The translations under genes and the position numbers were made by a program. 64,000 nt of DNA from Deinococcales bacterium (lineage in GTDB: Bacteria > Deinococcota > Deinococci > Deinococcales > JAAFIG01). The notes below the pieces were generated by a model. That model was not told the DNA's origin. It searched no databases and saw only the letters and a program-made list of their open reading frames with translations. Every line of letters starts with the position of its first letter. The first letter of the stretch is position 1. Of the stretch, positions 1 through 64,000 are shown piece after piece. The stretch spans positions 1 to 64,000 of the forward strand of contig JANNVX010000109.1 of assembly GCA_031414595.1 (NCBI GenBank), given 5' to 3'.

Positions 1-205
1 TGCGAATACCCGCTAAGGTCAGAATTTGGTTTAAGATAGTCATGGAAGCCTTTTTGGAGCGTTGGTTTAGACACTCACAGCTTACAGTAGGGCTTCCACT
101 TTTAATTTCTTAAATTTAAAAAACGTTCCAGACTATTGTTACTTAGACCACACTTTAATTCAAGAAAAACCTTTTGCTAACGCCATAGATTTACAAGACC
201 AAGGG

Positions 206-565
206 ATGATTCTTGTCCCCAGTGCGTTTTTAAGTTCAAACGTCATGAGTATGTGTGTCGAACCGTGGCAACCGACGATGATTTATCCAGCAAGAGGCAG
301 CGCCAACCTTTGGAACACACCGCTCGAGCCAAACTTGGCACTCGAAGCGCTTTTGGGAAGTGGTTGTGCTTTAGTTCTCGAGGCTTTGCATGTACCGACT
401 GGAACACTCGAGTTGGCAGGGCGTTTACAGGTTGCGCCAAGCAACATCACACATCACTTAAAACGTCTTGCTCGAGCCGGACTGGTTGAATCGCACCGCC
501 AAGGCAGAATTGTCTACTACAGACACTCGAGCCGAGCCGAGGATATTCTGGCACTTTACCAATGA
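206..565 (+). CDS. ArsR/SmtB-type winged-HTH regulator, C-terminal part (DUF5937-ArsR-like architecture); 5' part possibly frameshifted
   Basis: C-terminal HTH motif ELAGRLQVAPSNITHHLKRLARAGLVESHRQGRIVYY preceded by GMILVPSAF; the frame is open from nt 71 but blocked by stops further upstream. Confidence 0.65.
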   Translation: MILVPSAFLSSNVMSMCVEPWQPTMIYPARGSANLWNTPLEPNLALEALLGSGCALVLEALHVPTGTLELAGRLQVAPSNITHHLKRLARAGLVESHRQGRIVYYRHSSRAEDILALYQ

Positions 566-2059
566 TTAACGCTTAGTCGAGACAGTTAATGCCTTGAGTT
601 TTGCCGCCAATCCGGGGCTTAAAACTTCGCTCGAGTAGCGCCAACCCCAGTTTGTGCCACCCAAGCTACCCGGTAAATTCATGCGTTTTTCGGTGTCTAA
701 CTCGAGTAAATCTTGTAAGGGTGCAAGCGCCATAACTGCCTTGGATTTCCAAGCCGCCCTGATTAAATCCCAAACGATGTCTTTGCCTGTTACGCCCAAG
801 TAGGTTTTGGCTTTACTTTTGACAGTTTCAGGCTCAGATTTCCACCAACCCAAAGTGGTGTCGTTGTCGTGTGTACCCGTGTAGACCACACAATTTTCGC
901 TGTACATATGCGGTAAGAACAGGTCGTTTTGATCGCCATAAAACGCAAATTGCAGAATTTTCATCCCCGGCAAATTAAACCCGTCTCGTAGCGCTTCAAC
1001 CTCTGGAGTAATCACCCCCAAGTCCTCGGCGATAATCGCCAAATCGCCAAATTTAGCACGAACTGCGTTAAATAGTTCTATGCCCGGGGCTTTGACCCAT
1101 TGCCCAGTAATGGCAGTTTCGGCACTGCCCGGAATCTCCCAGTAGGCTTCAAAACCCCTAAAATGATCGACCCGTACAATATCTACGGTCTTAAAGGTTT
1201 CTTCAAAACGCTGTAGCCACCAAGAAAAACCATCTTTTGCCATGACATCAAAGCGGTAATGTGGATTGCCCCAAAGTTGCCCTGTGGCACTAAAATAATC
1301 AGGTGGCACGCCCGCCACCACACTTGGGCTGCCATCTGGCTCGAGCGCAAACAGTCCTTGGTTTGCCCAGACATCCGAAGAGTCATGTGCCACAAAAATT
1401 GGAATATCGCCAACAATCCGAATACCTTTGGCATGAGCCACTTTTTGTACCATTGCCCATTGACTAAAAAACCAGTATTGGGTTAAAGCATATAGTGTGA
1501 TGTCGGCAGCGTACTCGAGACGAGCGGTGTTGAGGGCTTCTTCATCGCGGCGTACCAGTTCGGGTTTCCAAGTGTTCCACGGTTTACCACTGTGGGCATT
1601 TTTACATGCCATAAACAAGGCGTAATCCTCGAGCCAAGAAGCATTGGCGGTGCGCCAATTGGTAAAAGCAGTTCGTTCGGCACTCGAGGCTTTTTCTTGC
1701 CAAGTGCTGGCGGCTTGGCGCAGAATTTGCCATTTCCAAATGTAAATCCAGCCATAATCCACGGTATCTTGCGGAAAGTCTGGCACATTTTGAAGCGCTT
1801 CCAAAGACAAAAATCCGTCAGCCACCAACAATTCTAAATCAATTAACAAGGGATTCCCTGCAAACGCCCCAAAACTCTGGTACGGCGAATCTCCGTAACC
1901 CGTATGACCAAGCGGCAAAACTTGCCAGAGTTTTTGACCCGCAGCCTCGAGCCAATCTAGCCACTCAAAAGCTGATGCCCCAAGCGACCCAATCCCAAAA
2001 CGCCCTGGAAACGAAGAAGGGTGAAGCAGCACCCCAGACGAACGACTAAAAATTGACAT
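566..2059 (-). CDS. malQ: 4-alpha-glucanotransferase (amylomaltase, GH77)
   Basis: RSSGVLLHPSSFPG N-terminus, WQVLPL, RVDHFRGF, IAEDLG, YTGTHDNDT motifs. Confidence 0.97.
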   Translation of the reverse strand: MSIFSRSSGVLLHPSSFPGRFGIGSLGASAFEWLDWLEAAGQKLWQVLPLGHTGYGDSPYQSFGAFAGNPLLIDLELLVADGFLSLEALQNVPDFPQDTVDYGWIYIWKWQILRQAASTWQEKASSAERTAFTNWRTANASWLEDYALFMACKNAHSGKPWNTWKPELVRRDEEALNTARLEYAADITLYALTQYWFFSQWAMVQKVAHAKGIRIVGDIPIFVAHDSSDVWANQGLFALEPDGSPSVVAGVPPDYFSATGQLWGNPHYRFDVMAKDGFSWWLQRFEETFKTVDIVRVDHFRGFEAYWEIPGSAETAITGQWVKAPGIELFNAVRAKFGDLAIIAEDLGVITPEVEALRDGFNLPGMKILQFAFYGDQNDLFLPHMYSENCVVYTGTHDNDTTLGWWKSEPETVKSKAKTYLGVTGKDIVWDLIRAAWKSKAVMALAPLQDLLELDTEKRMNLPGSLGGTNWGWRYSSEVLSPGLAAKLKALTVSTKR

Positions 2060-2062
2060 GGG

Positions 2063-9428: not shown

Positions 9429-12371
9429 CTATTTTGGTAACACAATTGGGTTTGGTAACAGTGGTATGATTGGCAGTCGCAGGTTGTCACGGTCTAACTC
9501 GAGCAGACTTTGCTTACCGTATGGCAAACTCAGCACAATACTAAACAAATAATTGGCGCTCACACTGGTGGTAATTGGTTTAAGACTGATGATAAAACTG
9601 TAACAACATTGGTCATAAATAACCGTGAAGGCGGGTTGTAGTGCAGTTGTGGCATTAAATCCTTGGCTGTCCCTAAACTCAAATGTTTGTGCAACATTAG
9701 CGACAAAAAATAAATTAGGGCGCTCTGAACCACCAATTGCAAAGGCAAAGGCTAAGCCCAAGGAACGCACTGTGAATCTATCCGTAAAAACACCTGTGCT
9801 GCGGTCTACACTGCGATTATAGGTTAGATCAGCAAAAGCACTGACTCCCGCCCGAATATCCCAACCAAAACGCAGTGTCAAATTGCTCCAAATCCATTCA
9901 AAGCTATCTGGGTCTGGTAAACGCAAACTCAGTTCAACTCCAAATTCAAAGGTAGCGCCTTTTAGGGTGTCAAACCGAGCCGTCAACGTTGGTTCATAGG
10001 CTTGGTAACTTTGTAAGTCTAAGCGACTACGAAAAGTAAAAGCCAAGGGTGTTGTTCCCGAAAAGGTAGCTTGTAATTCGAGGCTGCTTAGCGGCAACAA
10101 GTTGCTTTGAGAATTGTATGGCGCATAATCAAAACTATTGGTAAAGCGAATATCCAAACCCGTAAAAAAAGGACGGTCAAATTCGCTGCTGGCAAAGGTA
10201 TAGCGCACCCCAAGACTTCCGCTTAACTTGCTCGAGGTTGTACCAATTGGTGGGGTGTAGGTCTGATTAAAACTGAGCGCCACAGGATTTTCTGGGCTAC
10301 CAATAATAAAGCTCGAGTTCAAAGCAATACTTTTAATACTGGCATCGTTTAGGCTTTGCAGCAAATTGAGGCTGACAGTAAAAGCACGGTTAGCACTGTT
10401 AAAACCAACTCCTAAATTTAAGTCCTGAAATGTCCCCACGGGGTTGCTTAGGTTTGGGAAGGTGTAGCCAAACGCTAGACTAAAGCTGGTACGGCTCGAG
10501 CCAGACGAGGCTAAACGCAGACTGTACGCCACGGGTTTAGCGGTTTCAAAATCGTATTGACCAGACAAAGAAAAACTGACCGACTTAGGACTGAGGCTTA
10601 ATGTGGCACTAAACGGCTCGAACAAACCATCAAAAGTGGTGATATTACGAAAATTAACGGTAAAGCCGTACTGTTGGGTAGCGGTTAGATTTAGCCAAGG
10701 CAACGGGCGCAGGGTAAGGTTTGCGCCAAAACTGCCATTGCCAGCCCGATTAGAACTAAAGCTCTGGTCAATTGCAAAAGGAGTTTCGCCCCTCGAGACG
10801 TTATAACGGCTGTTTAGCCCCAACTCAAACCAAGTTCCAATACTTTGTTGCGCCCCAAGATTGGCATTAAAAACAATGTTACGTTCATACTCGCCGTCAA
10901 AGACCAAAGGGGCATTCACGGGGTCGCTGCTGTTGCGGCTGCTATAGTAACGCCCAGCAAAATCTGTGCCGCCAAAAAGTTTAGCCCCAGTCCAAAGCGG
11001 CTGCTCGAGCGCTACAGCCACAGCAAAGGCAACACGAAAAGCTGCAATGTTGGTTTGTTTATTTGTACCATCTGGGTTGATGCTGAGTGTCGCACTGGGA
11101 TTTAATGGATTGACTGGGGTGCTTAAAAACCCCGCGCTCCAATTCCAACTCGAGATTTGAAAACCCCCAAGTTTTGGTAACAAAGGCTTACCGGGCGTAA
11201 ACTGCAATTCAAAGATAAACGGCTGACGAATTTCTTTTTGGGATTCTAAATCGCTTCGGGTCGCGTTGGCAGTTAAGGACAAATCAAAAAGCGGTTCACG
11301 AAAACTTTGGACGTTGATGTCAAAACGCGCTGCCGACCATTTTAAGGCAAAATCCAAACGGGTTTGCTGATTGCCCCCATTTGGCAATGCCCCACGTAAT
11401 TCGGCACTTGCCCCTGAATCGGCTCGAGTCAGACTGGCGTTTAGTAGCAAGTCCGCCCAACGATCCTCGGGGTCACGCCCACCAATTGGAATTCGCATTT
11501 CCTCGAGCGCAAAACGGTAGGCGAGTTGTAATTCTGTACCAGACTGCGGTGGCAGCAACAAAAAAGCGGCTCGGGCTTTATTTGAGTAACCAAATAAATT
11601 GACAAAATTGACATCAAAGCCAATCCCAAAAGCTGGGGTTCGCGCCGCATAATAGCGCAGTAGCCAGTAACCAAAACCATTTTCGCCAATTGTAAACGGT
11701 AAATCCAAACCGACGGTTGGGCGGCTGGTGGTCTGACCTAAATTTAACTCAAGTTTTGGGTAACGCGAAGGCTCAGACAAAAAGACCACCACAATCGGCA
11801 AGTACATGATCGGCGCACCTGCCAATAAAATCGTCACATCTCGAGCCACCAAGCGGTCTCCGGGGTAAAGCGTAATTTCACCCGCCTTAAAACCATACGC
11901 ATCTTGTGTTGTGCCGCATCTCGAGCAGGGCGAAAAATATCCATCTTGGACACTGACTTGCCCGGGCAGACGTTCACAATTTACGCCCTCGACATCTATT
12001 TCGGTGGTTGAAATAAACACATCGGCGGCACTCAAGCCTTCGGACTCGAGGTCAACTTCAAAGTCTCGTCCAGCGATGGTGTCGGATTTACCTTGGAAAA
12101 TCCCTTCGCCCACAATTCGCAGTTTTCGGGTGGTTTTGTTGTACTCAATTCGGTCTGCCGTGATTTCGTCGTCATCTATTTTGATAATCGCGGGGTCGCC
12201 AACAATCACAATGTACTCTTCGCTTGTGCCGCTTGGTGTGGTCACACTTGGACGCAATTCGACTTTGGTGGCTTGAATTATCGTGATTTTACGGGCTTGG
12301 GCGGTGGTTGCCAAGCAAAAAATCAACAACACGAGAAAGAATTTCAAATAGCCTTCCGAATCTCTTGCCAA
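9429..12371 (-). CDS. LptD-like outer-membrane assembly protein (OstA-like N-terminus plus large beta-barrel)
   Basis: Signal peptide, ITADRIEYN, GYFSPCSRC, ITLYPGDRLVARDV; long aromatic beta-strand C-terminal region; downstream of lptF/G-like genes. Confidence 0.7.
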   Translation of the reverse strand: MARDSEGYLKFFLVLLIFCLATTAQARKITIIQATKVELRPSVTTPSGTSEEYIVIVGDPAIIKIDDDEITADRIEYNKTTRKLRIVGEGIFQGKSDTIAGRDFEVDLESEGLSAADVFISTTEIDVEGVNCERLPGQVSVQDGYFSPCSRCGTTQDAYGFKAGEITLYPGDRLVARDVTILLAGAPIMYLPIVVVFLSEPSRYPKLELNLGQTTSRPTVGLDLPFTIGENGFGYWLLRYYAARTPAFGIGFDVNFVNLFGYSNKARAAFLLLPPQSGTELQLAYRFALEEMRIPIGGRDPEDRWADLLLNASLTRADSGASAELRGALPNGGNQQTRLDFALKWSAARFDINVQSFREPLFDLSLTANATRSDLESQKEIRQPFIFELQFTPGKPLLPKLGGFQISSWNWSAGFLSTPVNPLNPSATLSINPDGTNKQTNIAAFRVAFAVAVALEQPLWTGAKLFGGTDFAGRYYSSRNSSDPVNAPLVFDGEYERNIVFNANLGAQQSIGTWFELGLNSRYNVSRGETPFAIDQSFSSNRAGNGSFGANLTLRPLPWLNLTATQQYGFTVNFRNITTFDGLFEPFSATLSLSPKSVSFSLSGQYDFETAKPVAYSLRLASSGSSRTSFSLAFGYTFPNLSNPVGTFQDLNLGVGFNSANRAFTVSLNLLQSLNDASIKSIALNSSFIIGSPENPVALSFNQTYTPPIGTTSSKLSGSLGVRYTFASSEFDRPFFTGLDIRFTNSFDYAPYNSQSNLLPLSSLELQATFSGTTPLAFTFRSRLDLQSYQAYEPTLTARFDTLKGATFEFGVELSLRLPDPDSFEWIWSNLTLRFGWDIRAGVSAFADLTYNRSVDRSTGVFTDRFTVRSLGLAFAFAIGGSERPNLFFVANVAQTFEFRDSQGFNATTALQPAFTVIYDQCCYSFIISLKPITTSVSANYLFSIVLSLPYGKQSLLELDRDNLRLPIIPLLPNPIVLPK

Positions 12372-14713: not shown

Positions 14714-17593
14714 TCATACAAGACTGATGCCACGTGACTCGAGGGCAGCTTCTAGTTCGGCTTGGGCATTTGGGTCTGGGCTTTTTTTGCCCAATACCAA
14801 CGGGAGTATCTGCTCGAGTTGCGCCTGCGAACCAAATTTTAGGACAGCAATACCAGCCCGTATCTGGGCAAATGGCACTTGGGTTTTTAGGGCATTATCA
14901 AAAGATTGGGTCACGGCTTCATCCCGATTTTCAATTTGACCCAAAATATCGTAGAGGTTAGCCAGTTTTCCCCAAGCTAAGGTTCGAGTGGTGGAATTGC
15001 CGTGCTGAGCATTGTGTTTGTATTGAATAATAGCTTCTTGAAAACGCCCCAAGCGCATTAGGCAAGCCGCTAAACCATTGCGTAAATACTCGGAGTTGCC
15101 AAATTCATCTAATTTCAAGGCTTCTTCAGCAATCAGTACGGCTTCTTGGTTGCGGTCGGCGTTTTGTAATGCCCACATGATTTGAATACTGGCGTTGACT
15201 TGGGCATAGCGGGCTTGACTGCGCTTGGCAATACTAAGGGCTTCAAAATGAAGTGGCAAGGCTTCAACTTCACGCCCTGTATCGTCGTAAACCGCCGCTA
15301 GACTCGAGACGATAATCGCTAAATCACCACTTTCGGACAACTGACTTAAACGAGTTCTGGCTTTTTGCAGCATCTCAATGCACTCGGGGTAACGCTGCTG
15401 GGCTTCAAAAATATCAAAGGCGACTTCCTCGAGTGTGGCATCAGTGCGCTCGAATTGCTCGGACAAGACCAAGGCTTCTTCGATTTGTTGGGCGGCATAT
15501 TCTAAATCTCCTGAATCATAGGCTTGGCTGGCAAGCACACTTAAGGCATTAGCACGGTTTTCTGTGGTGGTGCTTTGACCTAATACAATGTTGGCACAAT
15601 GCTTGGCGGCGCTTGGGTCGTTGAGTTGATTGTGCAGCACCGCCAAAGTTGCCAGAATATCCAAGCGCTCTGGCTCGAGTTGATGCGCTCGCAGTAAAAT
15701 TTCTCTGGATTCGTGCAGTAAACCAAGTTGACGTTTTGCCATGCCTTCGGCGGTTAATAACGGCAAGGCAGCTTTGGGCTGACCCGCCTTTAGGAAATGC
15801 TCGGCTTGTTGTAACCGTGGCAAGTCCAGATTTGCTGCCGCTTGATGCCAGTAGCTTCGGCGGTTTTGCGATAAATTGGCATATACACTCTGGCGCAGTA
15901 AATCATGCTCGAATCGTCCGAAGGTAATGAATTTGGCTTGCTCGAGAATTTCTAAGGCATCGAGCATTTTGGCAGCACTAAAACCAGTCATCTGACACAG
16001 CAGACTTAAATCCAAGCCTTCACCCAGCACACTGGCAGCCCCAAGAATAAGCTGTGTGGTTTTTGGCAGGCGCACGACTCGAGCCAGAATCACATCGGCA
16101 ACTCGAGTTGGCACAGCCAGTTCGTGATAATCGGTGCTGATTTCATCCAAAGCACTGCGCCAATGATGGTTTTCGACCCGTAAGAGACCTTTTTCAAACA
16201 AGGCTTTTAGTACCTCGAGCAGAAAAAAAGTGTTTCCTCCGGTGCGCTCCAGTAAAAACTGACTGAAAATCGGATAGTGTTCTTCCGTGCCAATTAAACT
16301 CGAGACAAGACGCTCTACACCCGTTAAATCAAAAGGTTGCAGGATAATTTTTTCGGCTCGCCAAGCGCTAAAATACTGCCCAAGTGTTTCAGAAATTTCG
16401 GTTGAACGCACTGTACCGTAAACCCGAATTCGTTCTCGAGCCAAAAAAAAAGTCATAAATTCTAGGGTAGCCGAGTCCGCCCATTGCAAATCATCAAACA
16501 ATAACGGCGTATTTTCTTGTTCACAAAAACGCGCCAAGGCTTCGAGCAGACGGGTTTTGGCGTTGTTTGCATCGGTGCTTTGTACCAAACCTAATTCTGG
16601 CAGCAATCTGGCTAAATCCTCGCGGTACACGCCCAGTGCCTCGGCTTTTTCGGGGGTGATGGTAAGCCTTAAATACCTTAAAAGCGGGGCGTAACTGATG
16701 CCTTCTAAACCCTCAAAGCAACCCAAGACCCGTGCTTCGGGCAGCACCTCGAGCGCAAAACGGCTCTTGCCGACCCCAGCCTCGCCAATAATCAAGACCA
16801 CATTGGCTTGACTGGCACGCAATTTAGCGGCTTCTAGGTCGCGCCCAATCAACTTTGGAGGACGCAGCACTGTCAGTGGAACTGGCTCTATCATTGGCTG
16901 TAGCTCGAGCGGTTGGGCGGCTAAAATCTGGGTGTGTAGTGCGATTGTGGCAGTATTGGGGACTGCGTTTAATTCTTTTAAGACCATTTCAAAACGCTTA
17001 AATGCACTCAGGGCAGCTTGGCGTTGCCCAGCCAAATACGCAGCCTTTAAGTAGGCATTCAAAACCATTTCATCAAATTCGTCGTTCTGCCATAATTGCA
17101 ATAACAATGTGCTGGCAGCCAAAAAATCTTGTTGCTCGAGACAACCTTGACTTTGGGCAAACATCGCTTCGCGCCAAGCCCCAGCCAATTTATCGCGTTC
17201 TAAACTCAGCCACTCCTCAAGGGCTGGACTTGCACTCCTGCCCTGCAAAAGTAAAGGCTGCTGATACAACTCGAGCGCCGTAACCCAGTCGCCAGCCCCA
17301 ATTGCTTCCTTAAAAAGTTGAACATCAGTTTGGATTAAAAAACGCACCCGACTTGTTTCTACCTCGAGATTTGCTGCCCACGGCAATGCCTTAGCACGGT
17401 TTAATAAAAGCCGCAAAGTATGCCGCGCCACGTCATCAGGTGCGTCTGGACGCAACAACAACGCCAAACTTGAGCGAGCCACCCAAGTGCCTTGGAGTGC
17501 CAAGTAGCAAAGTAAAAAGGCTGGTTTGGTCAGGGCAAAGTTTACCGCCATTGTTTCAATCACAGCTTGCGGTGAACGCAGTAAAAATAGCAT
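14714..17593 (-). CDS. SARP/BTAD-domain transcriptional regulator with AAA ATPase and TPR region
   Basis: N-terminal LLCYLAL...TDV BTAD pattern, Walker A GEAGVGKS, FDDLQWADSAT, TGGNTFFLLE, helical repeats. Confidence 0.85.
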   Translation of the reverse strand: MLFLLRSPQAVIETMAVNFALTKPAFLLCYLALQGTWVARSSLALLLRPDAPDDVARHTLRLLLNRAKALPWAANLEVETSRVRFLIQTDVQLFKEAIGAGDWVTALELYQQPLLLQGRSASPALEEWLSLERDKLAGAWREAMFAQSQGCLEQQDFLAASTLLLQLWQNDEFDEMVLNAYLKAAYLAGQRQAALSAFKRFEMVLKELNAVPNTATIALHTQILAAQPLELQPMIEPVPLTVLRPPKLIGRDLEAAKLRASQANVVLIIGEAGVGKSRFALEVLPEARVLGCFEGLEGISYAPLLRYLRLTITPEKAEALGVYREDLARLLPELGLVQSTDANNAKTRLLEALARFCEQENTPLLFDDLQWADSATLEFMTFFLARERIRVYGTVRSTEISETLGQYFSAWRAEKIILQPFDLTGVERLVSSLIGTEEHYPIFSQFLLERTGGNTFFLLEVLKALFEKGLLRVENHHWRSALDEISTDYHELAVPTRVADVILARVVRLPKTTQLILGAASVLGEGLDLSLLCQMTGFSAAKMLDALEILEQAKFITFGRFEHDLLRQSVYANLSQNRRSYWHQAAANLDLPRLQQAEHFLKAGQPKAALPLLTAEGMAKRQLGLLHESREILLRAHQLEPERLDILATLAVLHNQLNDPSAAKHCANIVLGQSTTTENRANALSVLASQAYDSGDLEYAAQQIEEALVLSEQFERTDATLEEVAFDIFEAQQRYPECIEMLQKARTRLSQLSESGDLAIIVSSLAAVYDDTGREVEALPLHFEALSIAKRSQARYAQVNASIQIMWALQNADRNQEAVLIAEEALKLDEFGNSEYLRNGLAACLMRLGRFQEAIIQYKHNAQHGNSTTRTLAWGKLANLYDILGQIENRDEAVTQSFDNALKTQVPFAQIRAGIAVLKFGSQAQLEQILPLVLGKKSPDPNAQAELEAALESRGISLV

Positions 17594-21634: not shown

Positions 21635-21826
21635 GCTGAGAATAAATTTTACTGGTTAAAGGCTTGATGCAGCAGCGTATCGTACAGGTGTTGAGCATGG
21701 CACAGCCCCTCAATTTGTTATCTGGGTAGGGGTTCATGGCGTTGCACAATCAAAACAAATTTTTGCTGAAGCTCGAGTGGCAGGGGTAAAATTATGGTCA
21801 TTCCTGACGAGAGTGTAGACTATCCC

Positions 21827-23623
21827 ATGAAAGCCGATGCCATTCCCCTGCGCTCACTACTCGAAGGCAAACAACAATTCGTTGTACCACTTTTTCAACG
21901 TCAATACGTTTGGAATCAAACCGAACATTGGGAACCACTTTGGGAAGATATTCTTCGTAAGTTCAAAGAACACCTGTCAGGGCGTACCAGCGCCCCAGTG
22001 CATTTTCTGGGCGCAATGGTTTTGCAGCAATTACCTACGCAAACAGGCAAGGTCACGCAACGCCAAGTGATTGATGGTCAGCAACGCCTGACCACATTGC
22101 AAATCGTCTTGGCAGTGTTTAGGGATTTTGCAGCCCAGCATAGCTTTACTAACCTTAGTGGCGATGCACAAGAGTACCTGATCAACTCCCGAAGAGAAGG
22201 CTCTGAGCTTCTAAAACTTATCCCAACCCAAGCAGACCGCGAACAATTCAAACAAGTCCTGACCCTAGGTTCACTCGAGTTACTGAATCAAAACTTTCTT
22301 TTGGTCAAGAAAAAAGGCGCTAAGAAATTTGACAAACGCCCAAGTATGGTCGAAGCCTATGCTTTTTTTTATCAGCAACTTACCGATTTTTTTGCCGAAA
22401 CAACCCACCTCGAGACTTGCTTTTCTATTTTGCTCGAGTCATTTCATGTCGTGGTGGTTGACCTCGATAAAACCGATGATGCCCAAGTCATCTTTGAAAC
22501 CTTGAATGCCAGAGGCGCACCACTTTCTCCTGCCGATCTGATTCGTAATTATGTGTTCTTACGAGTTGCCCAACAATCTAATAATCTCGATGCGCTTTAT
22601 GACCAATACTGGGCAGCCTTTGACCAACCTTTCTGGCGTGATTCGGTTTTGCAGGGGCGCTTAAAAAGACCACACTCCGATGTGTTTATGCAGTATTTTT
22701 TAACTGCCCAACGCGGCGCGGATATTTCGGTTAAGCATTTGTATGTCGAGTACAAAGATTGGATAGAACGCGATAAGCCTTTTACGACAATCGAAGCAGA
22801 ACTCCAGTTATTGGCGCAACAAGGCGTAAATTATCGAAACTTGGTTCTTGCACCGACCAGAAGCTCTTTTGGTCGTCTGGCTCAGTTTCTGCGTGCCTAT
22901 GATGTAACCACTTGCTACCCGCTCATGCTCGGATTCCTAAGCAGTGGCACAAACTTAGACGAACTGACTCGAGTTTCACGTACCATCGAGTCATATATTT
23001 TACGCCGTGCGGCTTGTGGTTATTCTACTAAAAACTACAATAATATTTTTCTGGCGGCATTGGTTGCCTGTAAAAATTTGGGTTTTTCGCATCAAACCTT
23101 GCTTGGTTTTCTCAAGAGTCTACGCAGTGAGTCTGCTGTTTTCCCATCTGACGATGAATTTGAATCGGCATTTTTGACCGCTTCAGCCTATTACTGGGGA
23201 CAGAAGCTCAGGTATATTCTGATTGAAATTAACCGCTCGTTGTTTACAGGTAAAACCGAAGAAATTGAGTTTCCTGTTCTCACCATCGAACACCTGATGC
23301 CACAAAGATGGTCAGCCAATTGGTTATTGCCGGACGGTTCAAAAGCCAACAGTCCAATGGCTGAAGATGACCCACGTTTTGACCTTTACCGTCAACGAGA
23401 GAAGCACATTCATACCATTGGTAATTTGACGCTCATCACAGGGAATTTGAACGGCAGCATTTCAAATGCTTCGTGGGATGTTAAGCGCCCTGAAATCCTC
23501 AATAACTCGAGCTTGCCAATCAATCAGACACTTCGGCAATACGATAACTGGGACGAAAAAACTATTGAAGAACGAGGGCAATGGCTTTTTGAACAAGCCA
23601 AGAAAATCTGGTCTCGAGCTTAG
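21827..23623 (+). CDS. DUF262-DUF1524 protein (GmrSD-like, putative modification-dependent restriction endonuclease)
   Basis: VPLFQRQYVW, IDGQQRLTT, IFETLNARG; HNH-like IEHLMPQ...IGNLTLITGNLNGSISN. Confidence 0.9.
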   Translation: MKADAIPLRSLLEGKQQFVVPLFQRQYVWNQTEHWEPLWEDILRKFKEHLSGRTSAPVHFLGAMVLQQLPTQTGKVTQRQVIDGQQRLTTLQIVLAVFRDFAAQHSFTNLSGDAQEYLINSRREGSELLKLIPTQADREQFKQVLTLGSLELLNQNFLLVKKKGAKKFDKRPSMVEAYAFFYQQLTDFFAETTHLETCFSILLESFHVVVVDLDKTDDAQVIFETLNARGAPLSPADLIRNYVFLRVAQQSNNLDALYDQYWAAFDQPFWRDSVLQGRLKRPHSDVFMQYFLTAQRGADISVKHLYVEYKDWIERDKPFTTIEAELQLLAQQGVNYRNLVLAPTRSSFGRLAQFLRAYDVTTCYPLMLGFLSSGTNLDELTRVSRTIESYILRRAACGYSTKNYNNIFLAALVACKNLGFSHQTLLGFLKSLRSESAVFPSDDEFESAFLTASAYYWGQKLRYILIEINRSLFTGKTEEIEFPVLTIEHLMPQRWSANWLLPDGSKANSPMAEDDPRFDLYRQREKHIHTIGNLTLITGNLNGSISNASWDVKRPEILNNSSLPINQTLRQYDNWDEKTIEERGQWLFEQAKKIWSRA

Positions 23624-25599: not shown

Positions 25600-28467
25600 G
25601 TGCTTCGGCTTTTAGGAACTGCCACTTATGACCACAAGCCCGTCACGCTTGAACGGTCTTTGTATCTGGTGGCTTTGTTGGTCTGTCAAAATTCTTGGAT
25701 GTCTCGAGAAGAGATGATTTTGCTTTTATGGGCAGAAGATGATTCGGGTAATATGGTCAAACAACGCCTTCGTCAGTTGCTTTACCGCGCTAAACAAATG
25801 CCTTATGCTGCCGAACTTGAAGTCAGTAGTACCCATTTACGCTTTAATGCCACCACCGATGTGCAATTATTCAGAAACGCGATTCAACAGCGCCATTGGT
25901 CAGAAGCGATTGCCTTATACCAAGGTGAATTCCTGCGTCATGCGGTTGTAGACTTGTCCGAACTTGACGAATGGTTTGCTTTAGAACGAGCCACCTTAAG
26001 TGCTGATTTTCGCTTGGCGGTCTTAGAACAGGCTTCTAAACTGCCCGCCCAAGAAGCGGCTTTATTGCTGGAGCAAGCCATGACCCATGACCCGCTCAAT
26101 GAGGAGTTGCTAAAAACACTGCTTGGTTACGCCAGCCAAGACCCCGAAATTGGACTTCGCGCCTATACACAATATGCCTTAGAATTGGCGCAAACTTTAC
26201 AACTTGAACCTTCTAAAGAAGTACGTGTCTTGGTGAGAGCCTTACCTGAAAAAAGCACACAAGTAACACCCAAACCACAATTTAAGTTACCAACCCCGAG
26301 CAGTGCCTTTGTGGGTCGTCAAGCCGAACTTGACCAAATCATGCAACGTTTAAGCGACCCCCGTTGTCGAATCCTGAGCTTGGTTGGGGTCGGGGGAATC
26401 GGTAAAACTCGGCTGGCGCTCGAGGTTGCCACTCGTATGCAAGCCGATGGAAGCACTCGTATGCAAGCCGATGGAAGCACTGGTATCTCTGAAGATGTGG
26501 TGTTTGTGGACCTTGCTCGGCTGAGCAACCATGAATTTGTCCCCCATGCAATCCTTGAAGCGATTGGCGAACGCCCTACCGAAAACCCACTTGAACACCT
26601 TAAAGAAGTCTTGGCTAGTAAAAAACTGCTTTTGATTTTGGATAACTTTGAACATCTGATGCAAGCCAGAGAAGTCGTGACTGGTTTACTTCAGCACACC
26701 ACCATGACCAGATTTATCGTCACTTCTCGAGAAAGCCTAGGACTTTTGCAGGAACAAGTCATAGAACTCCGAGGTTTACCTGCCCCAGATACTGTTTTTC
26801 CACTCGAGACTCAAGATGCGGCTCGGTTGTTTTTACGGGCTGCCCAACACAGTCAACTTGATTTTACTTTTGCCCAAGACTTTAAGGCTTTTGAGCGAAT
26901 TTATAAAGCGGTCGAAGGCACGCCGCTCGGTTTAGAATTGGCTGCCAGTTGGGTCAGAACCCTCAGCCTAAGCCAAATTGCCAGCGAACTCGAACGTAGC
27001 CTCGATATGCTGAGTCTCGACGCGCCAGATATGCCTAGCCGTCACCGCAGTTTTGCGGCTGTCTTTGCTTCAAGCTGGACACTACTCAATAAAGCCGAAC
27101 AAGCAGTCCTCACTAAACTTTCAGTTTTTCAAGGCGGATTTGATAAGGATATGGCAATCCAAGTGGCTGGCACAAATCTGACTTTGCTGCTGCGCTTGGT
27201 CAATAAATCTTTAATCTCGAGACGTGATCAACGCTTTGTGATGCACGAAATGATCCGCCAGTACAGCCAAGAAAATCATCTGCCTGAAAGCCAATATCAA
27301 ACCCTTCAAGCCCTGTGTAAAGTCGCCCTAGATTTAAGCGGCAAATGGTATGCCCACCGCAATGGCGAACAGATTGGCGAATGGAGTAAACGTCTCGAGC
27401 AAGACCATGACAACATCCGTACTGCTTTAGCTTGGGCGCTGCAACACGATACCTTGACTGGGACAACTATTTGTGGGCAATTAGAACACTTTTGGTATAT
27501 CCGAGGTCATCACCGCGAAGGGCTGAACTGGGCAAGGCAGTTTGAACCGCTTTACCAAGACCTAGACCAAAAGCGTGTGCTTTTACTATGGACAATCATT
27601 AGTCTGTCTAAAGAACTTGGCGAATACGATTTGGCAAAGGCAACCCTAGAAACCTACCGCCAACTGGCAATTACACTTCAGGATAAGCGATTGATTGCCA
27701 ATTACGAAAAATTAGTTGGATTTATAGCCCATGAACAAGGTCATTTGGATTTAGCCAAAATACATTTGGAAAATTCTTTGCAAATTCATATTGAATTTAA
27801 CAACCAGTATTCTATTGCCACCTGCCACAACAGTTTAGGGGTCATTGCTGCCAAACAAGGACTTTACGCAGCAGCCAAACATCACGCCGAGGAAGCCTTG
27901 CGCTTAAAACGCATCATCGGAGATAAACATGGTGTTGCTTATGCCATTGAAAATCTTGGGATAATTGCTGGTCAACAAGGCGATTATGCTTTAGAAAAAG
28001 TCATGATGGAAGAAGCCTTGCGCTTAAACCGTGAACTTGGCGATCAACAAGGGATCGCCAAAAGTATTTATGCGCTTGGAAAAAATGCACTCGAGCAGAA
28101 TCAAATTCAAAATGCAATCCAGTTTTGCCTTGAAGCCTTTGACATATGTTGTCGTTTGGAACGCCGTTATTTAATGATTCAACTGATTCATACCTTTGCC
28201 CAGATTGCCAGTCGGCTCGGGCAACCGCTAACAGCTTGGCGCTTTATTACCCTAAGCATTCACCTTTCAAACCAATTGCACAGTCTGCCACCACAATCAT
28301 GGTTTACTGAACAGCGTGACTGGCAAAAAGAAAGTAACTTAACGGCGACACAACTGGCAAAACTCGAGTTTGAACTAGAAAAACAACCACAGTTTGAGCG
28401 AATCCAAGAGATTTTTTTGTGGTTATCACAATCCCAAGTTTTGGTTCAAACACTGGTAAACAGCTAA
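25600..28467 (+). CDS. SARP/BTAD regulator with NB-ARC-like ATPase and TPR repeats
   Basis: FVGRQAEL, GVGGIGKTRLA, LILDNFEHL, TSRESL, GTPLGLELAA, C-terminal TPRs. Confidence 0.88.
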   Translation: MLRLLGTATYDHKPVTLERSLYLVALLVCQNSWMSREEMILLLWAEDDSGNMVKQRLRQLLYRAKQMPYAAELEVSSTHLRFNATTDVQLFRNAIQQRHWSEAIALYQGEFLRHAVVDLSELDEWFALERATLSADFRLAVLEQASKLPAQEAALLLEQAMTHDPLNEELLKTLLGYASQDPEIGLRAYTQYALELAQTLQLEPSKEVRVLVRALPEKSTQVTPKPQFKLPTPSSAFVGRQAELDQIMQRLSDPRCRILSLVGVGGIGKTRLALEVATRMQADGSTRMQADGSTGISEDVVFVDLARLSNHEFVPHAILEAIGERPTENPLEHLKEVLASKKLLLILDNFEHLMQAREVVTGLLQHTTMTRFIVTSRESLGLLQEQVIELRGLPAPDTVFPLETQDAARLFLRAAQHSQLDFTFAQDFKAFERIYKAVEGTPLGLELAASWVRTLSLSQIASELERSLDMLSLDAPDMPSRHRSFAAVFASSWTLLNKAEQAVLTKLSVFQGGFDKDMAIQVAGTNLTLLLRLVNKSLISRRDQRFVMHEMIRQYSQENHLPESQYQTLQALCKVALDLSGKWYAHRNGEQIGEWSKRLEQDHDNIRTALAWALQHDTLTGTTICGQLEHFWYIRGHHREGLNWARQFEPLYQDLDQKRVLLLWTIISLSKELGEYDLAKATLETYRQLAITLQDKRLIANYEKLVGFIAHEQGHLDLAKIHLENSLQIHIEFNNQYSIATCHNSLGVIAAKQGLYAAAKHHAEEALRLKRIIGDKHGVAYAIENLGIIAGQQGDYALEKVMMEEALRLNRELGDQQGIAKSIYALGKNALEQNQIQNAIQFCLEAFDICCRLERRYLMIQLIHTFAQIASRLGQPLTAWRFITLSIHLSNQLHSLPPQSWFTEQRDWQKESNLTATQLAKLEFELEKQPQFERIQEIFLWLSQSQVLVQTLVNS
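26431..26478 (+). repeat. In-frame 24-nt tandem duplication
   Basis: actcgtatgcaagccgatggaagc x2 (TRMQADGS x2). Confidence 0.9.
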
Positions 28468-28474
28468 AACAAGT

Positions 28475-29467: not shown

Positions 29468-29491
29468 GATTTGAAATTGTAACAGGTTTTC

Positions 29492-29554: not shown

Positions 29555-29640
29555 TGTGAGACAAAGTAATTTGGAATTGCCCTATCCTCTAAGCTGTTTA
29601 CCCAATATCCCTGAAAGCTCAGAACAATTAGAATTTTTAC

Positions 29641-33873: not shown

Positions 33874-33885
33874 AGGAGGGATGAT

Positions 33886-45676: not shown

Positions 45677-47431
45677 ATGGAAGTTCATACACACGACGTA
45701 ATTGTTGTTGGCGCAGGTGGAAGCGGCTTAATGGCGGCGCTGTACGCCAAGAAAAACGCAACTGGCAGCGTTGCCGTTATCTCTAAACTTTACCCGACCC
45801 GTTCACACACGGGCGCAGCCCAAGGTGGTGTCGGGGCAGCCCTAGGCAACGTAGACGAGGACAGTTGGGAATGGCATATGTTTGATACGGTTAAGGGTGG
45901 CGATTACTTGACCGACCAAGACGCAGCCGAAATTTTTGCCAAAGATGTGATTGAAGCGGTGCTTGAACTCGAGCATATGGGGCTGCCTTTTAGCCGTTTG
46001 CCGAATGGGAAAATTGCCCAGCGCCGCTTTGGTGGGCATACCAGAGAATTTGGTAAAGCCCCAGTTCATCGCGCTTGTTATGCGGCTGACCGCACAGGGC
46101 ATATGATTTTACAAACCTTGTATCAGCAAAGCATCAAAGAAAGAGTCACTTTTTTTAATGAATTTGTGGTGCTGGATTTAATTCTCGAGGATGATTCAAG
46201 TGGCAAAGTCTGCAAAGGCGTGGTTGCTTATGAACTGGCTACGGGTAAACTCCATACCTTTCATGCCAAAAGCGTGGTCTTGGCTTCAGGTGGCAACGGA
46301 CGGATGTTCAAAGTCACCAGCAACGCCCATGCGCTGACTGGCGACCTGACCAGCATTGCCTACCGCCGAGGCATCCCACTCGAGGACATGGAATTTTATC
46401 AGTTTCACCCGACTGGGTTGTATAAACTTGGGGTACTCCTGACCGAAGGTGTGCGCGGTGAAGGTGGCATCCTTCGTAACTCGAGCGGTGAGCGCTTTAT
46501 GGAACGCTACGCTCCAACCATCAAAGACCTTGCGCCCCGCGATATTGTTTCGCGCAGTATGTATTTTGAAATTCGTGAGGGACGCGGTTGTGGACCGAAC
46601 AAAGATTACATTCACTTGGATGTGACCCATATAGACCCGAAAATTCTCGAGGAACGCCTACCTGACATCATGGATTTTAGCCGTACCTATTTAAGAGTTG
46701 AACCAACCAAAGAACCAGTACCGATTCAACCGACTGCCCATTACACGATGGGTGGAATTCCGACCACTTTGGATGGCGAAGTGATTTTCGGCACAACCAA
46801 TGACACCAAGGTACGCGGTTTATACGCGGCTGGCGAAGTGGCTTGTGTTAGCTTGCACGGCGCGAATCGCCTTGGTACAAACAGCTTAGGCGATTTAATT
46901 GTCTTCGGCAGACGGGCTGGTGTAGCTGCCGCCAAGTACGCCAACACCGCCGCCCTCGAGCCATTACCCAGCAATGCTGCTGGACGAGCCTCTGATTTGG
47001 TCAACAACACCAAAAATTCCAATGGTACAGAAAGTGTGGCTAAAATCCGCCTCGAGATGCAGCAAACTATGCAGGACAACGCCAGTGTCTTTCGCACCGA
47101 AGAAACCCTAAGTACCCAGGTCGAAATTTTACGCGGCTTAAACCAGCGCTACAAAAACATTGGAGTTTCTGACAAGGGTGAGCGCTTCAACACCGAACTT
47201 TTAGAAGCCATCGAACTTGGCTTTTTGCTCGATAACGCCGAAGCCCTTGTTCACAGCGCCCTAAACCGCCGTGAATCGCGTGGCGCACATGCGCGAGAAG
47301 ACCACACCGAACGCAACGATACGACTTTCTTAAAACACACGATGTGCTATCAGCTCGAGCCGGGCAGAACCGAAATCAAATGGAAAGATGTGGTACTGGG
47401 TAAATACGAACCAAAACCGAGAACGTATTAA
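45677..47431 (+). CDS. sdhA: Succinate dehydrogenase flavoprotein
   Basis: [18 protein letters not shown] (FAD-His), [22 protein letters not shown]. Confidence 0.98.
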
Positions 47432-47495
47432 GCTATGAGCCTTGAGCTATGAGCTAAAATTCTCAAAGCTCAAAGCCCATAGCTCATAGCCTCTC
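47431..47495. repeat. Inverted heptamer tandem repeats
   Basis: agctatg agccttg agctatg agct ... agctcaa agcccat agctcat agc. Confidence 0.7.
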
Positions 47496-47509
47496 AAAAA
47501 GGAGTCTCC

Positions 47510-48211
47510 ATGCAAGCAATTTTTAAGATTCATCGTTATAACCCTGAAAAAGACAAAAAACCGTACTGGGCAGAATATACCCTCGAGGTTGACCCCAAAG
47601 ACCGAATTCTCGATATTCTTAATCAAATTAAATGGGAACTTGATGGTAGCTTATCGTTTCGGCGTTCTTGCGCCCATGGGATTTGTGGTTCGGATGCGAT
47701 GCTGATTAACGGCAAAAATCGTTTGGCTTGTAAGGTATTGATGATGGATTTAGGTGGGAATACGGTTACGGTAGAACCGATTCGCGGACTGAGTGTCGAA
47801 AAGGACTTAATTGTTGACATGACTCCGTTCTTTGAGAGTTACGAAGCGGTGATGCCGTTTTTTATCAACGACCAACAGATGCCAGAACGCGAACATATTC
47901 AAAGCCATGAAGACCGCGAGATTTATGATGCCAGTACCAAGTGTATTCTTTGTGCTTGCTGCACCACTTCCTGCCCGATTTTCTGGGTCAATGGAACGTA
48001 TTTGGGACCAGCGGCAATCGTTCAAGCTCACCGTTTTATCTTTGACTCGAGAGACACAGGTGGGGCAGAGCGCTTGGCTAAACTCAATCAAAACACAGGG
48101 GTTTGGCGTTGCCGCACCGCCTACAACTGCACCGAAGCCTGCCCGAGGGATATTCCGATTACTGATGTGATTGGGCAAGTCAAACGCGCTATTCTGTACA
48201 GCAGCATCTGA
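47510..48211 (+). CDS. sdhB: Succinate dehydrogenase iron-sulfur subunit
   Basis: RSCAHGICGSD, CILCACCTTSCP, CRTAYNCTEACP. Confidence 0.98.
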   Translation: MQAIFKIHRYNPEKDKKPYWAEYTLEVDPKDRILDILNQIKWELDGSLSFRRSCAHGICGSDAMLINGKNRLACKVLMMDLGGNTVTVEPIRGLSVEKDLIVDMTPFFESYEAVMPFFINDQQMPEREHIQSHEDREIYDASTKCILCACCTTSCPIFWVNGTYLGPAAIVQAHRFIFDSRDTGGAERLAKLNQNTGVWRCRTAYNCTEACPRDIPITDVIGQVKRAILYSSI

Positions 48212-58201: not shown

Positions 58202-58472
58202 AGTCTACACGAGTTTGCACGGCTCGAGATACGCAAAATGGCGAGTAAGTTTTATCTAACCTTATACAAAATTGCTTGGTTTAGTATTTTGAATCGCATT
58301 TCAATAGGTTCGCATGTATAAATTTAATCGTAGCCATTTTGACTGTGCCTACCAAGTCTCAAGGATTAGGATTCTAAGGGTCCAGAGGGTATGACTTTAG
58401 TCGATTAAACCTTAAAAAAAGGTTTGGTCTACTCGGTTCTCACCTGTGGTCTCTTATTGTCGAAGGAGACAT

Positions 58473-59324
58473 ATGAAGAAAATAATTCCATTCGTCGTCG
58501 GCACTTTATTTATCGGTGGTGCGGCACTTGCTGCCCCTTTGGAACTCAGTTCAGGTGAATTCGGTTTGGTGTATCAATTGCTTTCTATCGCTATTGCATC
58601 CATGGGTGCATCATTCATTTTCTTTGTCTTGGGTAAGCAAAACCTAGGTATAAAATACCAACCTGCCATGCTGGTTTCGGCATTGGTCGTGGCGGTGGCT
58701 TGTTACCATTACGTGCGTATTTTTGATTCTTGGAAAGAAGCCTACGTGTTTGCTGATGGGGTTTACAAAGCCACTGGTATTCCTTTCAACGATGCTTATC
58801 GTTACGCCGATTGGGTCTTGACCGTACCACTCTTATTGGTCGAAGCTGTGGCAGTATTAGCACTGGCAAGTAGTGTTGCCTCGGGCATGATTTGGCGATT
58901 GGTTGTGGCTGCCTTAGCAATGATTGCACTGGGTTATCCAGGCGAAATCTCGAGTGATACTGGCACACGTTTACTCTGGGGTACACTCAGCACCATTCCA
59001 TTTTTGTACATTATCTATACCTTGTTTGTCGAGCTTGGCAAGTCCTTAGCAACCCAACCACCTCGAGTTCAACTTCTGATGGGCAACTTGCGGTTATTGC
59101 TGTTCGGGTCATGGGGTTTCTATCCAATCGCCTATTTGCTTCCCTTGATATTTGGTAGCTTATCTTCTAGCGGAATTGTAGCGCTGCAAGTAGGGTATAG
59201 CCTTGCCGACATTATTGCCAAAGCAGGTTTCGGTACACTAATTTACTTTATCGCCCTCGAGAAAACCAAAGTAGACAACGAGAATAAGGCAAAAGTAGGC
59301 AATCTCGCAACGGCAGGAGACTAA
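58473..59324 (+). CDS. Microbial rhodopsin, xanthorhodopsin/Gloeobacter-rhodopsin-like DTE proton pump
   Basis: FNDAYRYADWVLTVPLLLVE (D-T-E), GYPGE, WGTLSTIPF, WGFYPIAY, DIIAKAGFG (retinal Lys); AAGGAG RBS. Confidence 0.95.
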   Translation: MKKIIPFVVGTLFIGGAALAAPLELSSGEFGLVYQLLSIAIASMGASFIFFVLGKQNLGIKYQPAMLVSALVVAVACYHYVRIFDSWKEAYVFADGVYKATGIPFNDAYRYADWVLTVPLLLVEAVAVLALASSVASGMIWRLVVAALAMIALGYPGEISSDTGTRLLWGTLSTIPFLYIIYTLFVELGKSLATQPPRVQLLMGNLRLLLFGSWGFYPIAYLLPLIFGSLSSSGIVALQVGYSLADIIAKAGFGTLIYFIALEKTKVDNENKAKVGNLATAGD

Positions 59325-62413: not shown

Positions 62414-62937
62414 TGCAAGAAGAATTCCTCAAAAGCAGCCGCAAATTCTTTTTGTACTACAAAGAATTAGGCGAGAAAGCCATGCTTCAACTCGAGGAGG
62501 CACAACTTTTTCTCACACCAAGCGCTGGCAGCAACAGCATTGCCGTGATTGTGCAGCACATGGCGGGCAATATGCACTCGAGATGGACTGGTTTTCCAGA
62601 CACAGACGGTGAAAGTGCCAGCCGCAACCGTGATGCCGAATTTGAACTGCATTTAGACACTCGAGAAGAACTGCACAAGACTTGGGAATCTGGTTGGGCA
62701 GTTGTTTTTGCGGCACTCGAGCGGATAGATGATGTGCTGAAAACTGTCACGATTCGCGGTCAACAAATCACGGTTCTCGAGGCAATACAACGCCAAGTTG
62801 CCCATTACGCGCATCATGCTGGACAAATTGTATTCTCGGCAAAAATCATGCGCGGACAAGAATTTATCAGCCTGAGTGTTCCGCGTGGCGGTTCGGCGGC
62901 TTTTAATGCCGCCATGCTCGAGAAAACCAAGCCTTGA
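62404..62937 (+). CDS. DUF1572/DinB-like protein
   Basis: SNSIAVIVQHMAGNMHSRWT, RNRDAEF, HYAHHAGQI. Confidence 0.88.
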   Translation: MDMMQEEFLKSSRKFFLYYKELGEKAMLQLEEAQLFLTPSAGSNSIAVIVQHMAGNMHSRWTGFPDTDGESASRNRDAEFELHLDTREELHKTWESGWAVVFAALERIDDVLKTVTIRGQQITVLEAIQRQVAHYAHHAGQIVFSAKIMRGQEFISLSVPRGGSAAFNAAMLEKTKP

Positions 62938-63001
62938 GGACATCAGCCAAGTGGTGAGCGTGTTACAATCTTGCCTTGTGACCAATGGTCACGGAGGTTT
63001 T

Positions 63002-64000
63002 ATGACAGAACTACAAGAAAAACTAGAAAACCTTCGGGGGTATCTTTGACATCGCTGGTAAAACAGCCCGTTTAGATGTTCTCGAAGTTAGCCTAAACGA
63101 CCCAAACCTGTGGAACGACGCGAGTAACGCCCGCAATGTCACTAAAGAAAGCACAGCCTTGCGCCGTGTGGTAGATGATTTTATGCGCCTCGAGTCGGAT
63201 GTGCTGGGTCTTGGCGAAATGCTCGAAGTGGCTTCCGAAGAAGAACGTGCCGAACTCGAGCCAGATTTACTCGAGGCAACCACTCGGGTGGATGCGCTCT
63301 ATAAAGAAACACTTTTTAATGTCCATCACGCCGATTCTGCCGCGATTCTGGTGATTAAACCCGGTGCTGGTGGCACAGAAAGCCAAGACTGGGCAGAAAT
63401 GCTGCTGCGAATGATTACGCGCTATGCCGAACGCCATGAATTTGCGGTTGAACTGATGGATGTTACGGCTGGCGACCAAGCGGGGATTACGTATGCCGAA
63501 TTGATTGTCCGAGGTGAACGGGCGTATGGGTTACTGCGCTCAGAGGCTGGGGTACATCGTTTGGTGCGTGTTTCACCATTTAATGCCCAAGGTAAACGTC
63601 AAACCAGTTTCTCAAGTATCGAAATCATGCCCGAAATCGAGGATGCCTCGGAAGTTGAAATTAACCAAGCCGATGTTCGGATAGATGTCTTTAGGGCTGG
63701 CGGACACGGCGGACAGGGAGTCAACACCACCGACAGTGCAGTGCGCTTAACCTATAAAGCTGGAACACCCGACATGATTGTGGTGATTTGCCAAGACGGA
63801 CGCAGCCAACTCAAAAATAAAGACAAAGCCTTTACCGTCTTGCGCTCGAGACTCTATGAAATGGAAATGCGTAAAAAACGCGAAATCGAAGACAAAGCCC
63901 GTGGACAACAAAAGAGCATCGAATGGGGCAGTCAGATTCGCAGTTATGTGCTGGATAAGCAATATGTCAAAGACCACCGAACTGGTGTGATGCAGCACAA
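63002..64000 (+). CDS. prfB: Peptide chain release factor 2 (programmed +1 frameshift; 3' end beyond the window)
   Basis: MTELQEKLENLRGYL then CTT TGA C; the +1 frame gives DIAGK...GVHRLVRVSPF...GGHGGQGVNTTDSAVR...WGSQIRSYVL. Confidence 0.97.
63035..63050 (+). promoter_or_regulatory. RF2 autoregulatory frameshift site
   Basis: cggggg-tat-ctt-tga-c: internal SD-like GGGGG plus CTTTGAC. Confidence 0.95.

Follow-up and report, generated by a model that had tools for sequence, protein, structure and literature searches.

To our knowledge, the highly iterated palindrome HIP1 (GCGATCGC) has been described only in cyanobacteria, where it has been a puzzle for three decades. It is a short palindrome that is tens-fold over-represented genome-wide, in genes and spacers alike, is conserved between related genomes and is common to a large clade; its function is unsettled (PMC4390886, PMC5861425). 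Published accounts place its density at 300–2,700 copies per Mb (Elhai Table 2, PMC4390886), argue for methylation-linked mismatch repair (PMC4390886) and describe a methylation-dependent enhancement of transformation together with a proposed role as an uptake sequence (PMC13756078). A periodicity of 10–90 kb has also been reported for HIP1. Here we describe a word that shares the general properties of HIP1, CTCGAG, in the genome of an uncultured member of the order Deinococcales; it differs from HIP1 in phylum, in sequence and in length (6 bp rather than 8 bp). The DNA analysed, hereafter the window, is a stretch of 64,000 nt, positions 1–64000 of contig C109 (JANNVX010000109.1) of assembly GCA_031414595.1. 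The genome that holds it, G000, comprises 4,488,778 bases in 120 contigs.

The DNA uptake sequences (DUS) of the Neisseriaceae and the uptake signal sequences (USS) of the Pasteurellaceae are family-wide short words, 9–12 bp long and non-palindromic, which lie in genes and spacers about once per kb and up to several copies per kb, are mildly enriched near gene ends and are rarer in recent acquisitions. They are thought to have been spread by biased uptake and recombination; the uptake bias has been shown experimentally, and the receptor is known for DUS. CTCGAG resembles DUS and USS in being shared across its family (18 of 18 other genomes), chromosome-wide and present in both genes and spacers, with a mild rise at gene ends and fewer sites in DNA of kinds often exchanged horizontally. 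Unlike them, it is a 6-bp palindrome with no extended consensus. In very-short-patch repair at the Dcm sites (CCWGG) of Escherichia coli, repair of a methylated word shifts word frequencies genome-wide, with a small effect, and this bias requires Vsr together with a C5 methyltransferase. The family of G000 differs from such a system in that Vsr was matched in none of its 19 genomes and the deamination neighbour CTTGAG is not depleted.

The alternate cyanobacterial HIPs (GGCGCC, GCsGC, rCCGGy and GGGATCCC) are likewise palindromic, some of them 6 bp long, and take the HIP role in single lineages. According to Elhai 2015 (PMC4390886), they are 75–100% G+C, occur ~1,000–2,000 times per Mb and each come with a matching methyltransferase. 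CTCGAG, with four G+C letters of six (67%), falls below the ≥75% G+C of these words and differs also from HIP1 in this respect; at ~5,200 copies per Mb it is denser than either, and no cognate methyltransferase shared by its family was found. The string CTCGAG does not occur in Elhai 2015 (PMC4390886). We found no published report of CTCGAG as a highly iterated palindrome among the titles listed in a literature search that left subscription-only papers outside its scope, so that 'unreported' is provisional. With the same proviso, CTCGAG represents an independent case of a HIP-type word in Deinococcota, shorter and denser than HIP1 and without the methyltransferase link.

Extent and anatomy of the CTCGAG excess

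The window contains 318 CTCGAG sites (positions 1–64000; the palindrome has no strand), compared with a mean of 7.34 (sd 2.98, maximum 16) in 100 dinucleotide-preserving shuffles. An earlier note on this DNA had called the word HIP-like across the window and had estimated about 30 copies in the first 5 kb; the exact count there is 30. Sites fall in all three gene frames on both strands as well as in spacers, the note having named all reading frames and intergenic DNA: by open reading frame (ORF) calls, 148 are read as CTC-GAG, 47 as xCT-CGA-Gxx and 79 as xxC-TCG-AGx, and 44 lie outside ORF calls. Density in the window is 5.08 per kb in coding and 4.40 per kb in non-coding DNA, and every 4-kb bin holds 13–27 sites. 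Other NTCGAN words occur in 0–24 copies each. G+C content along the window varies between 0.44 and 0.51, and the excess is therefore not a matter of base composition.

Across G000, CTCGAG occurs 23,235 times against 972 expected from base composition, a 23.9-fold excess, and is the commonest hexamer of the genome. It holds 69% of all 33,474 TCGA tetramers; the most frequent of the other TCGA-containing hexamers reaches 1,421 copies, which disposes of an equal enrichment of such words, and the reversed word GAGCTC is found in 6 copies. All 105 contigs longer than 5 kb carry 2.55–8.59 sites per kb, and none of 1,058 4-kb windows contains fewer than 5. The maximal-order Markov ratio of CTCGAG is only 1.16. 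Because the pentamers CTCGA and TCGAG nearly always belong to the hexamer, this model absorbs the signal and provides no explanation of it.

Codon and dipeptide usage, the control proposed in the earlier note, leave most of the excess in place. Synonymous codons were permuted within 3,865 non-overlapping long ORFs, a rough gene model in which starts are uncertain and stops and frames are sound, so that the protein and each gene's codon usage were preserved. Over 5 replicates the permuted genes contained 2,009 sites (sd 12), so that the 20,418 observed remain in ten-fold excess. Of the sites in G000, 88% lie inside genes, and density is 5.15 per kb in coding and 5.35 per kb in non-coding DNA. 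The genic sites divide into 12,087 in frame CTC-GAG (59%), 3,988 in xCT-CGA-G and 4,299 in xxC-TCG-AGx. Leu-Glu is the most over-used dipeptide of the proteome (20,173 versus 9,075 expected, 2.2-fold; Glu-Leu, 8,898). CTCGAG writes 60% of the Leu-Glu pairs, compared with 5.1% predicted by codon frequencies, and CTC makes up 64.8% of Leu codons before Glu and 7.9% elsewhere. CTCGAG therefore shapes protein sequences, overriding codon choice and some amino acids, and a weak force at the DNA level can reshape a proteome, here by ~11,000 extra Leu-Glu pairs.

The enriched unit is the bare hexamer. The 16 NCTCGAGN contexts in G000 are nearly even, save for a shortage of CCTCGAGG (178 copies), and the commonest octamers of the genome consist of CTCGAG plus neighbours. 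In genes and in spacers the palindrome extends beyond CTCGAG no more than by chance, which rules out longer hairpins centred on the word. The distance from one site to the next averages 191, with a coefficient of variation of 0.99; these near-random values rule out even spacing or phasing. Gaps shorter than 50 bp are somewhat rarer than in a Poisson process, there is a tail of long gaps, and a gap of 6, which would make GAGCTC, is never seen. Among the 1,058 4-kb windows, site counts are over-dispersed, with a mean of 20.7 and a variance of 30.7. Around gene starts and stops the profile is flat (3.6–7.2 per kb in 20-bp bins), with a dip just past starts and a mild rise around and past stops; convergent spacers carry 6.57 sites per kb and divergent spacers 4.82. 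CTCGAG is neither a regulatory motif nor a repeat element, nor does it form a phased array. The tRNA genes of G000 contain 7 sites, compared with 27.5 predicted from the density of the genome. A cluster of Ser, Ser, Cys, Thr and Glu tRNA genes on contig C56 (144–2945) carries CTCGAG in all five of its members, which are five of the seven tRNA genes of G000 with a site.

Palindromes other than CTCGAG are scarce in G000. The remaining 63 palindromic hexamers together reach 0.33 of expectation, 34 of them lie below 0.1, and GGCC has 152 copies where 13,951 would be expected. Alone among G+C-containing palindromes, CTCGAG is exempt from this very strong avoidance and shows the opposite. RTCGAY words are almost absent as well (ATCGAT 89, ATCGAC 63, GTCGAT 59 and GTCGAC 26 copies; ~1,000 expected each). 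Because ATCGAC and GTCGAT are not palindromic, this shortage looks like the avoidance of a degenerate site.

Distribution among relatives and turnover of sites

We compared G000 with 18 other genomes of its family and with 22 genomes of four sister families of the same order (G019–G040). The family genomes are 57–94% complete; one, G013, is closed and the rest are fragmented metagenome bins. All 18 relatives, from five genera, carry CTCGAG in 12,028–35,442 copies, or 4.3–6.8 per kb (per-kb densities of relatives use rounded genome sizes), and the 22 genomes of the other families contain 128–7,001 copies, or 0.03–2.9 per kb. In 20-kb samples from the four other genera of the family, whose G+C content is 0.55–0.62, the observed-over-expected ratio for sites (O/E) is 11–22. 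Similar samples from sister families gave an O/E of 5.5 for G021, a G+C-rich relative (0.70) in which the level of CTCGAG fits codon usage, and of 0.1 for the Deinococcus-like G020, which amounts to avoidance of the word. In family f3, which is Deinococcus-like, CTCGAG is strongly avoided (128–942 sites per genome). The sister-family genome G019 (99% complete, 4 contigs, G+C 0.56) has an intermediate level of 6,990 sites (O/E 5–8) and avoids other palindromes too, GAGCTC being present in only 62 copies. Near-complete and intermediate as it is, this organism may give an experimental way in, if cultured.

The succinate dehydrogenase flavoprotein gene sdhA (45677–47431, + strand) contains 8 sites in the window. 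Its orthologues carry 3–11 in 14 family genomes versus 0–4 in 16 others. At column 979 (window position 46646), CTCGAG is present in 11 of the 14 family genomes, and all 16 outside genomes have ATCGAG, ATTGAG or ATCGAA; Ile-Glu outside the family is thus replaced by Leu-Glu within it, a second respect in which the word has altered protein sequence as the earlier note had suspected. At column 1288 (46955) CTCGAG occurs in 12 of 14 family genomes versus none of the 16 others. These two family-only shared sites argue that the force was already active in the family ancestor. Column 292 carries CTCGAG in 9 of the 16 outside genomes.

Orthologous DNA of five same-genus genomes (G001, G003, G005, G006 and G007) was projected onto the window. 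G001 and G005 are 91–92% identical to G000, and G003, G006 and G007 are 79–81% identical to every other genome. Between 32 and 52 kb of the window, CTCGAG is kept at 88% of positions in G001 versus 59% for control hexamers, and at 79% versus 34% in G003. Of 451 ancestral sites, 40 (8.9%) were altered on three short terminal branches, versus 20.8% of control hexamers; on four longer branches the figures are 54 of 395 (13.7%) versus 41–52%. Each of the three folded site positions changes at 1.1–3.2%, compared with ~2–7% for the same contexts outside, that is, 2–4 times less often. Leu-Glu pairs on the longer branches changed in 15.6% of 211 cases when encoded by CTCGAG and in 47.8% of 23 cases when encoded otherwise. 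Over long times sites are clearly protected, and over short times modestly, which fits a process in which variants that lose the site appear freely and are subsequently eliminated or revert. Among 185 site positions covered in four lineages, CTCGAG is present in all four at 54, in three at 43, in two at 28 and in a single one at 60; gains and losses roughly balance. An old, family-wide, directional force at the DNA level thus maintains the bare hexamer at random positions, and we hold this description of a HIP-kind word to be almost certainly correct.

Changes at the sites tend to involve several letters. On the longer branches, 25 of 54 losses and 6 of 10 gains involve differences at three or more of the six letters, versus 6.3% of changed control hexamers; on the short branches five of six clean gains show 3–5 differences, versus 4.4% of controls. 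At 46678–46683 (+ strand) G000 has TAGCCG (Phe-Ser-Arg) and G005 has CTCGAG, five of the six letters differing within ordinary flanks and the amino acids being kept. A second such case lies in nuoD at 34278–34283 (+ strand), with AAGCCG in G000, CTCGAG in G005 and Leu-Ser-Arg kept. At both positions G005 alone among the same-genus genomes reads C-TCG-AGr and the others read x-AGC-CGy; Ser-Arg is retained and the flanks have diverged by 7–10%. At 46678 an identical 18-nt patch is shared by G005 and G013, a member of another genus, and the flanks differ. A lost site is seen at 33099–33104 (+ strand), where G000 and G001 have GCAAAG (Pro-Gln-Ser) and G003, G006 and G007 have CTCGAG (Pro-Ser-Ser), and some patterns, such as CTCTGG at 14023 common to G001, G005 and G007, conflict with the tree. 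These patches fit either short-tract allele replacement or a release of constraint after a first hit, and a special enzyme is not needed. The idea of a dedicated 'writer' enzyme, drawn from the synonymous rewriting of 5–6 letters, is weakened by the control for Ser codon switches given below.

Candidate origins of the directional force

The force would be weak at each site: a ~24-fold excess needs a scaled advantage of about ln 24, roughly 3, which is of the order of strong codon bias. The 4-kb windows of G000 with the fewest sites lie in an O-antigen/polysaccharide cluster (C46) and in a locus with RHS-repeat, SIR2-like and GASH genes (C14), both of kinds commonly exchanged horizontally. Both loci have a lower G+C content and are richer in the palindromes that the genome otherwise avoids; over 1,058 windows, the numbers of sites and of avoided words correlate at Spearman −0.28. 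Even in the poorest regions CTCGAG is more than five-fold enriched, which argues that the process acts on resident DNA over time. The C14 locus encodes a 3,646-aa RHS-repeat protein with a PT-HINT domain (27188–38128), beside the SIR2-like and GASH-domain genes. A search of G000 with Terminase_6N found no match and identified no prophage. Viral contigs with three CTCGAG sites within 78 bp were also considered, at no fewer than 126 loci; the densest have a G+C content of 0.52–0.78 and several contain GAGCTC and GGCC, unlike the family, and these loci are therefore uninformative on phages of these hosts.

A transformation-linked drive is the possibility that we tentatively favour, because the distribution of sites is uniform, unphased and family-shared, exchange-prone DNA shows a deficit, replacements are patchy, and the methyltransferase and Vsr tests failed. 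Uptake, or recombination into the chromosome, would favour DNA bearing CTCGAG over DNA without it; CTCGAG alleles would then spread through bacteria of a naturally competent type, often as short patches, and the word would act as a family-wide tag of self DNA. The competence protein ComEC is encoded in 18 of the 19 family genomes, and the enhancement of transformation described for HIP1 (PMC13756078) points in this direction. A narrower version, which strikes us as quite improbable, holds that sites are installed and removed as patches of ≤20 nt and not letter by letter, either by transformation micro-imports that favour the CTCGAG strand or by template-directed conversion. If it were true, CTCGAG would be a DNA tag that propagates itself, and a single process would underlie both HIP-type palindromes and uptake sequences.

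Several observations weigh against a transformation-linked drive. Nothing ties CTCGAG directly to uptake; known uptake sequences are 9–12 bp long and non-palindromic, and a 6-mer discriminates poorly. ComEC is also found in all 22 sister-family genomes, which lack the trait, so competence is plausible and does not discriminate. A pure drive limited by protein constraint alone would be expected to make non-coding DNA denser in sites, and it is no denser than coding DNA. Gains from one-mismatch precursors are few, 4 of 159 on terminal branches, which by a rough estimate is close to the neutral rate and not clearly above it. On the short branches the protection of sites is modest, Leu-Glu having changed in 10.3% of 224 CTCGAG-encoded pairs versus 15.7% of 89 pairs encoded otherwise. 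Switches between the TCN and AGY codons of Ser, with Ser kept, amount to 8 of 829 when G000 is compared with G001, none of them at CTCGAG, and to 26–42 per pair of genomes at ~20% divergence, with 3–5 at CTCGAG. Because multi-letter synonymous switches are thus common away from the sites, patchy changes alone are no proof of imports. Counts drawn from 64 kb are low, and hexamer windows that overlap are not independent of one another.

In the model that Elhai put forward for HIP1, here biased repair linked to a methyltransferase, CTCGAG or TCGA would be marked and mismatch repair would resolve towards the full word. The protection of all six positions and the restoration and gain of sites speak for such a bias, and so do the ~25 methyltransferase matches across five Pfam families in G000, the near-total avoidance of other palindromes, which implies strong restriction-modification pressure, and the matching methyltransferase reported for every cyanobacterial HIP genome (PMC4390886). 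However, a search of seven Pfam families found no methyltransferase common to all examined family genomes, on the understanding that the bins are incomplete and that unrelated enzymes can share a specificity. At E ≤ 1e-8, PF01555 was unmatched in G013 (the closed genome), G014 and G002, and PF00145 had no match in G010; the PF02384, PF07669 and PF02086 repertoires differ between family genomes. The methyltransferase repertoires of G000, G006, G009, G010, G011 and G013 likewise differ, pairwise orthologues linking only subsets of them, and the D12 enzymes of G000 are only 26–28% identical to those of G013 and G011. As a universal cognate enzyme, a TaqI/CamA-like methyltransferase on contig C89 is ruled out by its presence in only 3 of 18 family genomes; the C32 enzyme, the most widely shared in pairwise comparison, is ruled out by its presence in 7 of 18 and also outside the family. 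MT-A70 was matched in 1 of 19 family genomes, T4-type Dam in none of 19, and Vsr (PF03852) in none of 19, the last being present in 2 of the 22 other genomes and in the E. coli control. The XhoI endonuclease family PF04555 had no match in G000, but as its control matched in no genome either, this absence carries no weight. C>T changes at the central C of CTCGAG stand at 2.4% versus 5.1% at other TCG, and neither CTTGAG (O/E 1.06) nor CTCAAG (O/E 1.08) is depleted in G000. Since the central C is not hypermutable and CTTGAG is at expectation, a 5-methylcytosine signature is missing. With no shared methyltransferase, Vsr or deamination signature found, methylation-linked repair is unsupported, and we consider it unlikely, though still a live rival. 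Of the cause suggested in the earlier note, a DNA-level process that fixes CTCGAG holds up, whereas a tie to methyltransferases or methylation-directed repair gained no support in these tests; its other options, recombination or a DNA-binding protein, may apply. That this link, the main cyanobacterial clue, does not show here is informative in itself.

Natural selection for a function of the site, for example as a binding site for an abundant protein of the nucleoid or of chromosome organisation, or as a mark of self that a defence or repair system reads, would accord with conservation above background and with an old, family-wide trait that includes family-specific shared sites. A scaled advantage of ~3 per site would suffice, and the conservation of HIP1 has been argued, by Xu et al. 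(PMC5861425), to reflect selection and a role in nucleoid structure. Near-Poisson spacing and over-dispersed 4-kb counts, on the other hand, reveal no spacing or dosage rule, only 54 of 185 positions are common to four lineages at ~20% divergence, and no candidate reader protein was found; conservation, moreover, cannot separate selection from a restoring bias. We regard a site function as rather unlikely, though worth keeping in view. The excess might instead follow from the usage of codons, dipeptides or bases, or be a CTC-GAG relic of a G+C-rich ancestor, as the O/E of the G+C-rich G021, the outside sites at sdhA column 292 and the predominance of the CTC-GAG frame could suggest. A codon artefact is excluded by the ten-fold excess over the synonymous shuffle, by the equal density of non-coding DNA and by the continuing gain of sites, 60 of which are lineage-specific; the use of CTC before Glu and the 6 copies of GAGCTC also speak against a by-product, which we judge very improbable. 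Small dispersed repeats do occur in these genomes, and copies of a REP- or MITE-like element that contains CTCGAG could in principle spread the word. The missing consensus around the site, with its nearly even contexts and chance-level outward palindromy, and the placement of 88% of sites inside genes and in all frames exclude a mobile repeat, and the dispersed repeats examined in the window are free of CTCGAG; the probability that we give this origin is negligible.

The family spans 47–62% G+C, and the case lends itself to comparative tests of methylation-linked repair, nucleoid selection and uptake or transformation. For this family, CTCGAG also offers a sharp compositional marker by which sequences can be binned and foreign DNA recognised.

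Other features of the window

Two extensions of respiratory-chain genes contain sites within tandem repeats. The C-terminal extension of nuoC contains 2.3 units of a 24-bp repeat (33732–33786, + strand), with CTCGAG at 33732 and 33756 and TTCGAG at 33780 in G000; the extension of nuoI contains a 21-bp repeat (37628–37691, + strand) with CTCGAG at 37630, 37651 and 37672. Short dispersed repeats lie at 33530–33610 and 47431–47512, with further copies on many contigs in each of the five same-genus genomes; neither has CTCGAG inside, and the latter is the hairpin-forming spacer between sdhA and sdhB. An Rfam search of the window matched no family.

The part of the window with the lowest G+C content encodes a GmrSD type IV restriction endonuclease, with both its N- and C-terminal domains (21794–23623, + strand). 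Two large STAND-type NTPases with TPR repeats are encoded at 14714–17593 (− strand) and 25600–28467 (+ strand), one with a BTAD domain and the other with an NB-ARC match. A 980-aa ORF (9429–12371, − strand) has no Pfam match at 1e-5 and evolves faster than its neighbours, with 68–73% nucleotide identity to G007 and G003 versus ~80% for the flanking genes. The window also places a bacteriorhodopsin-like gene in a Deinococcales chromosome (58446–59324, + strand; Pfam PF01036, E 1e-36).

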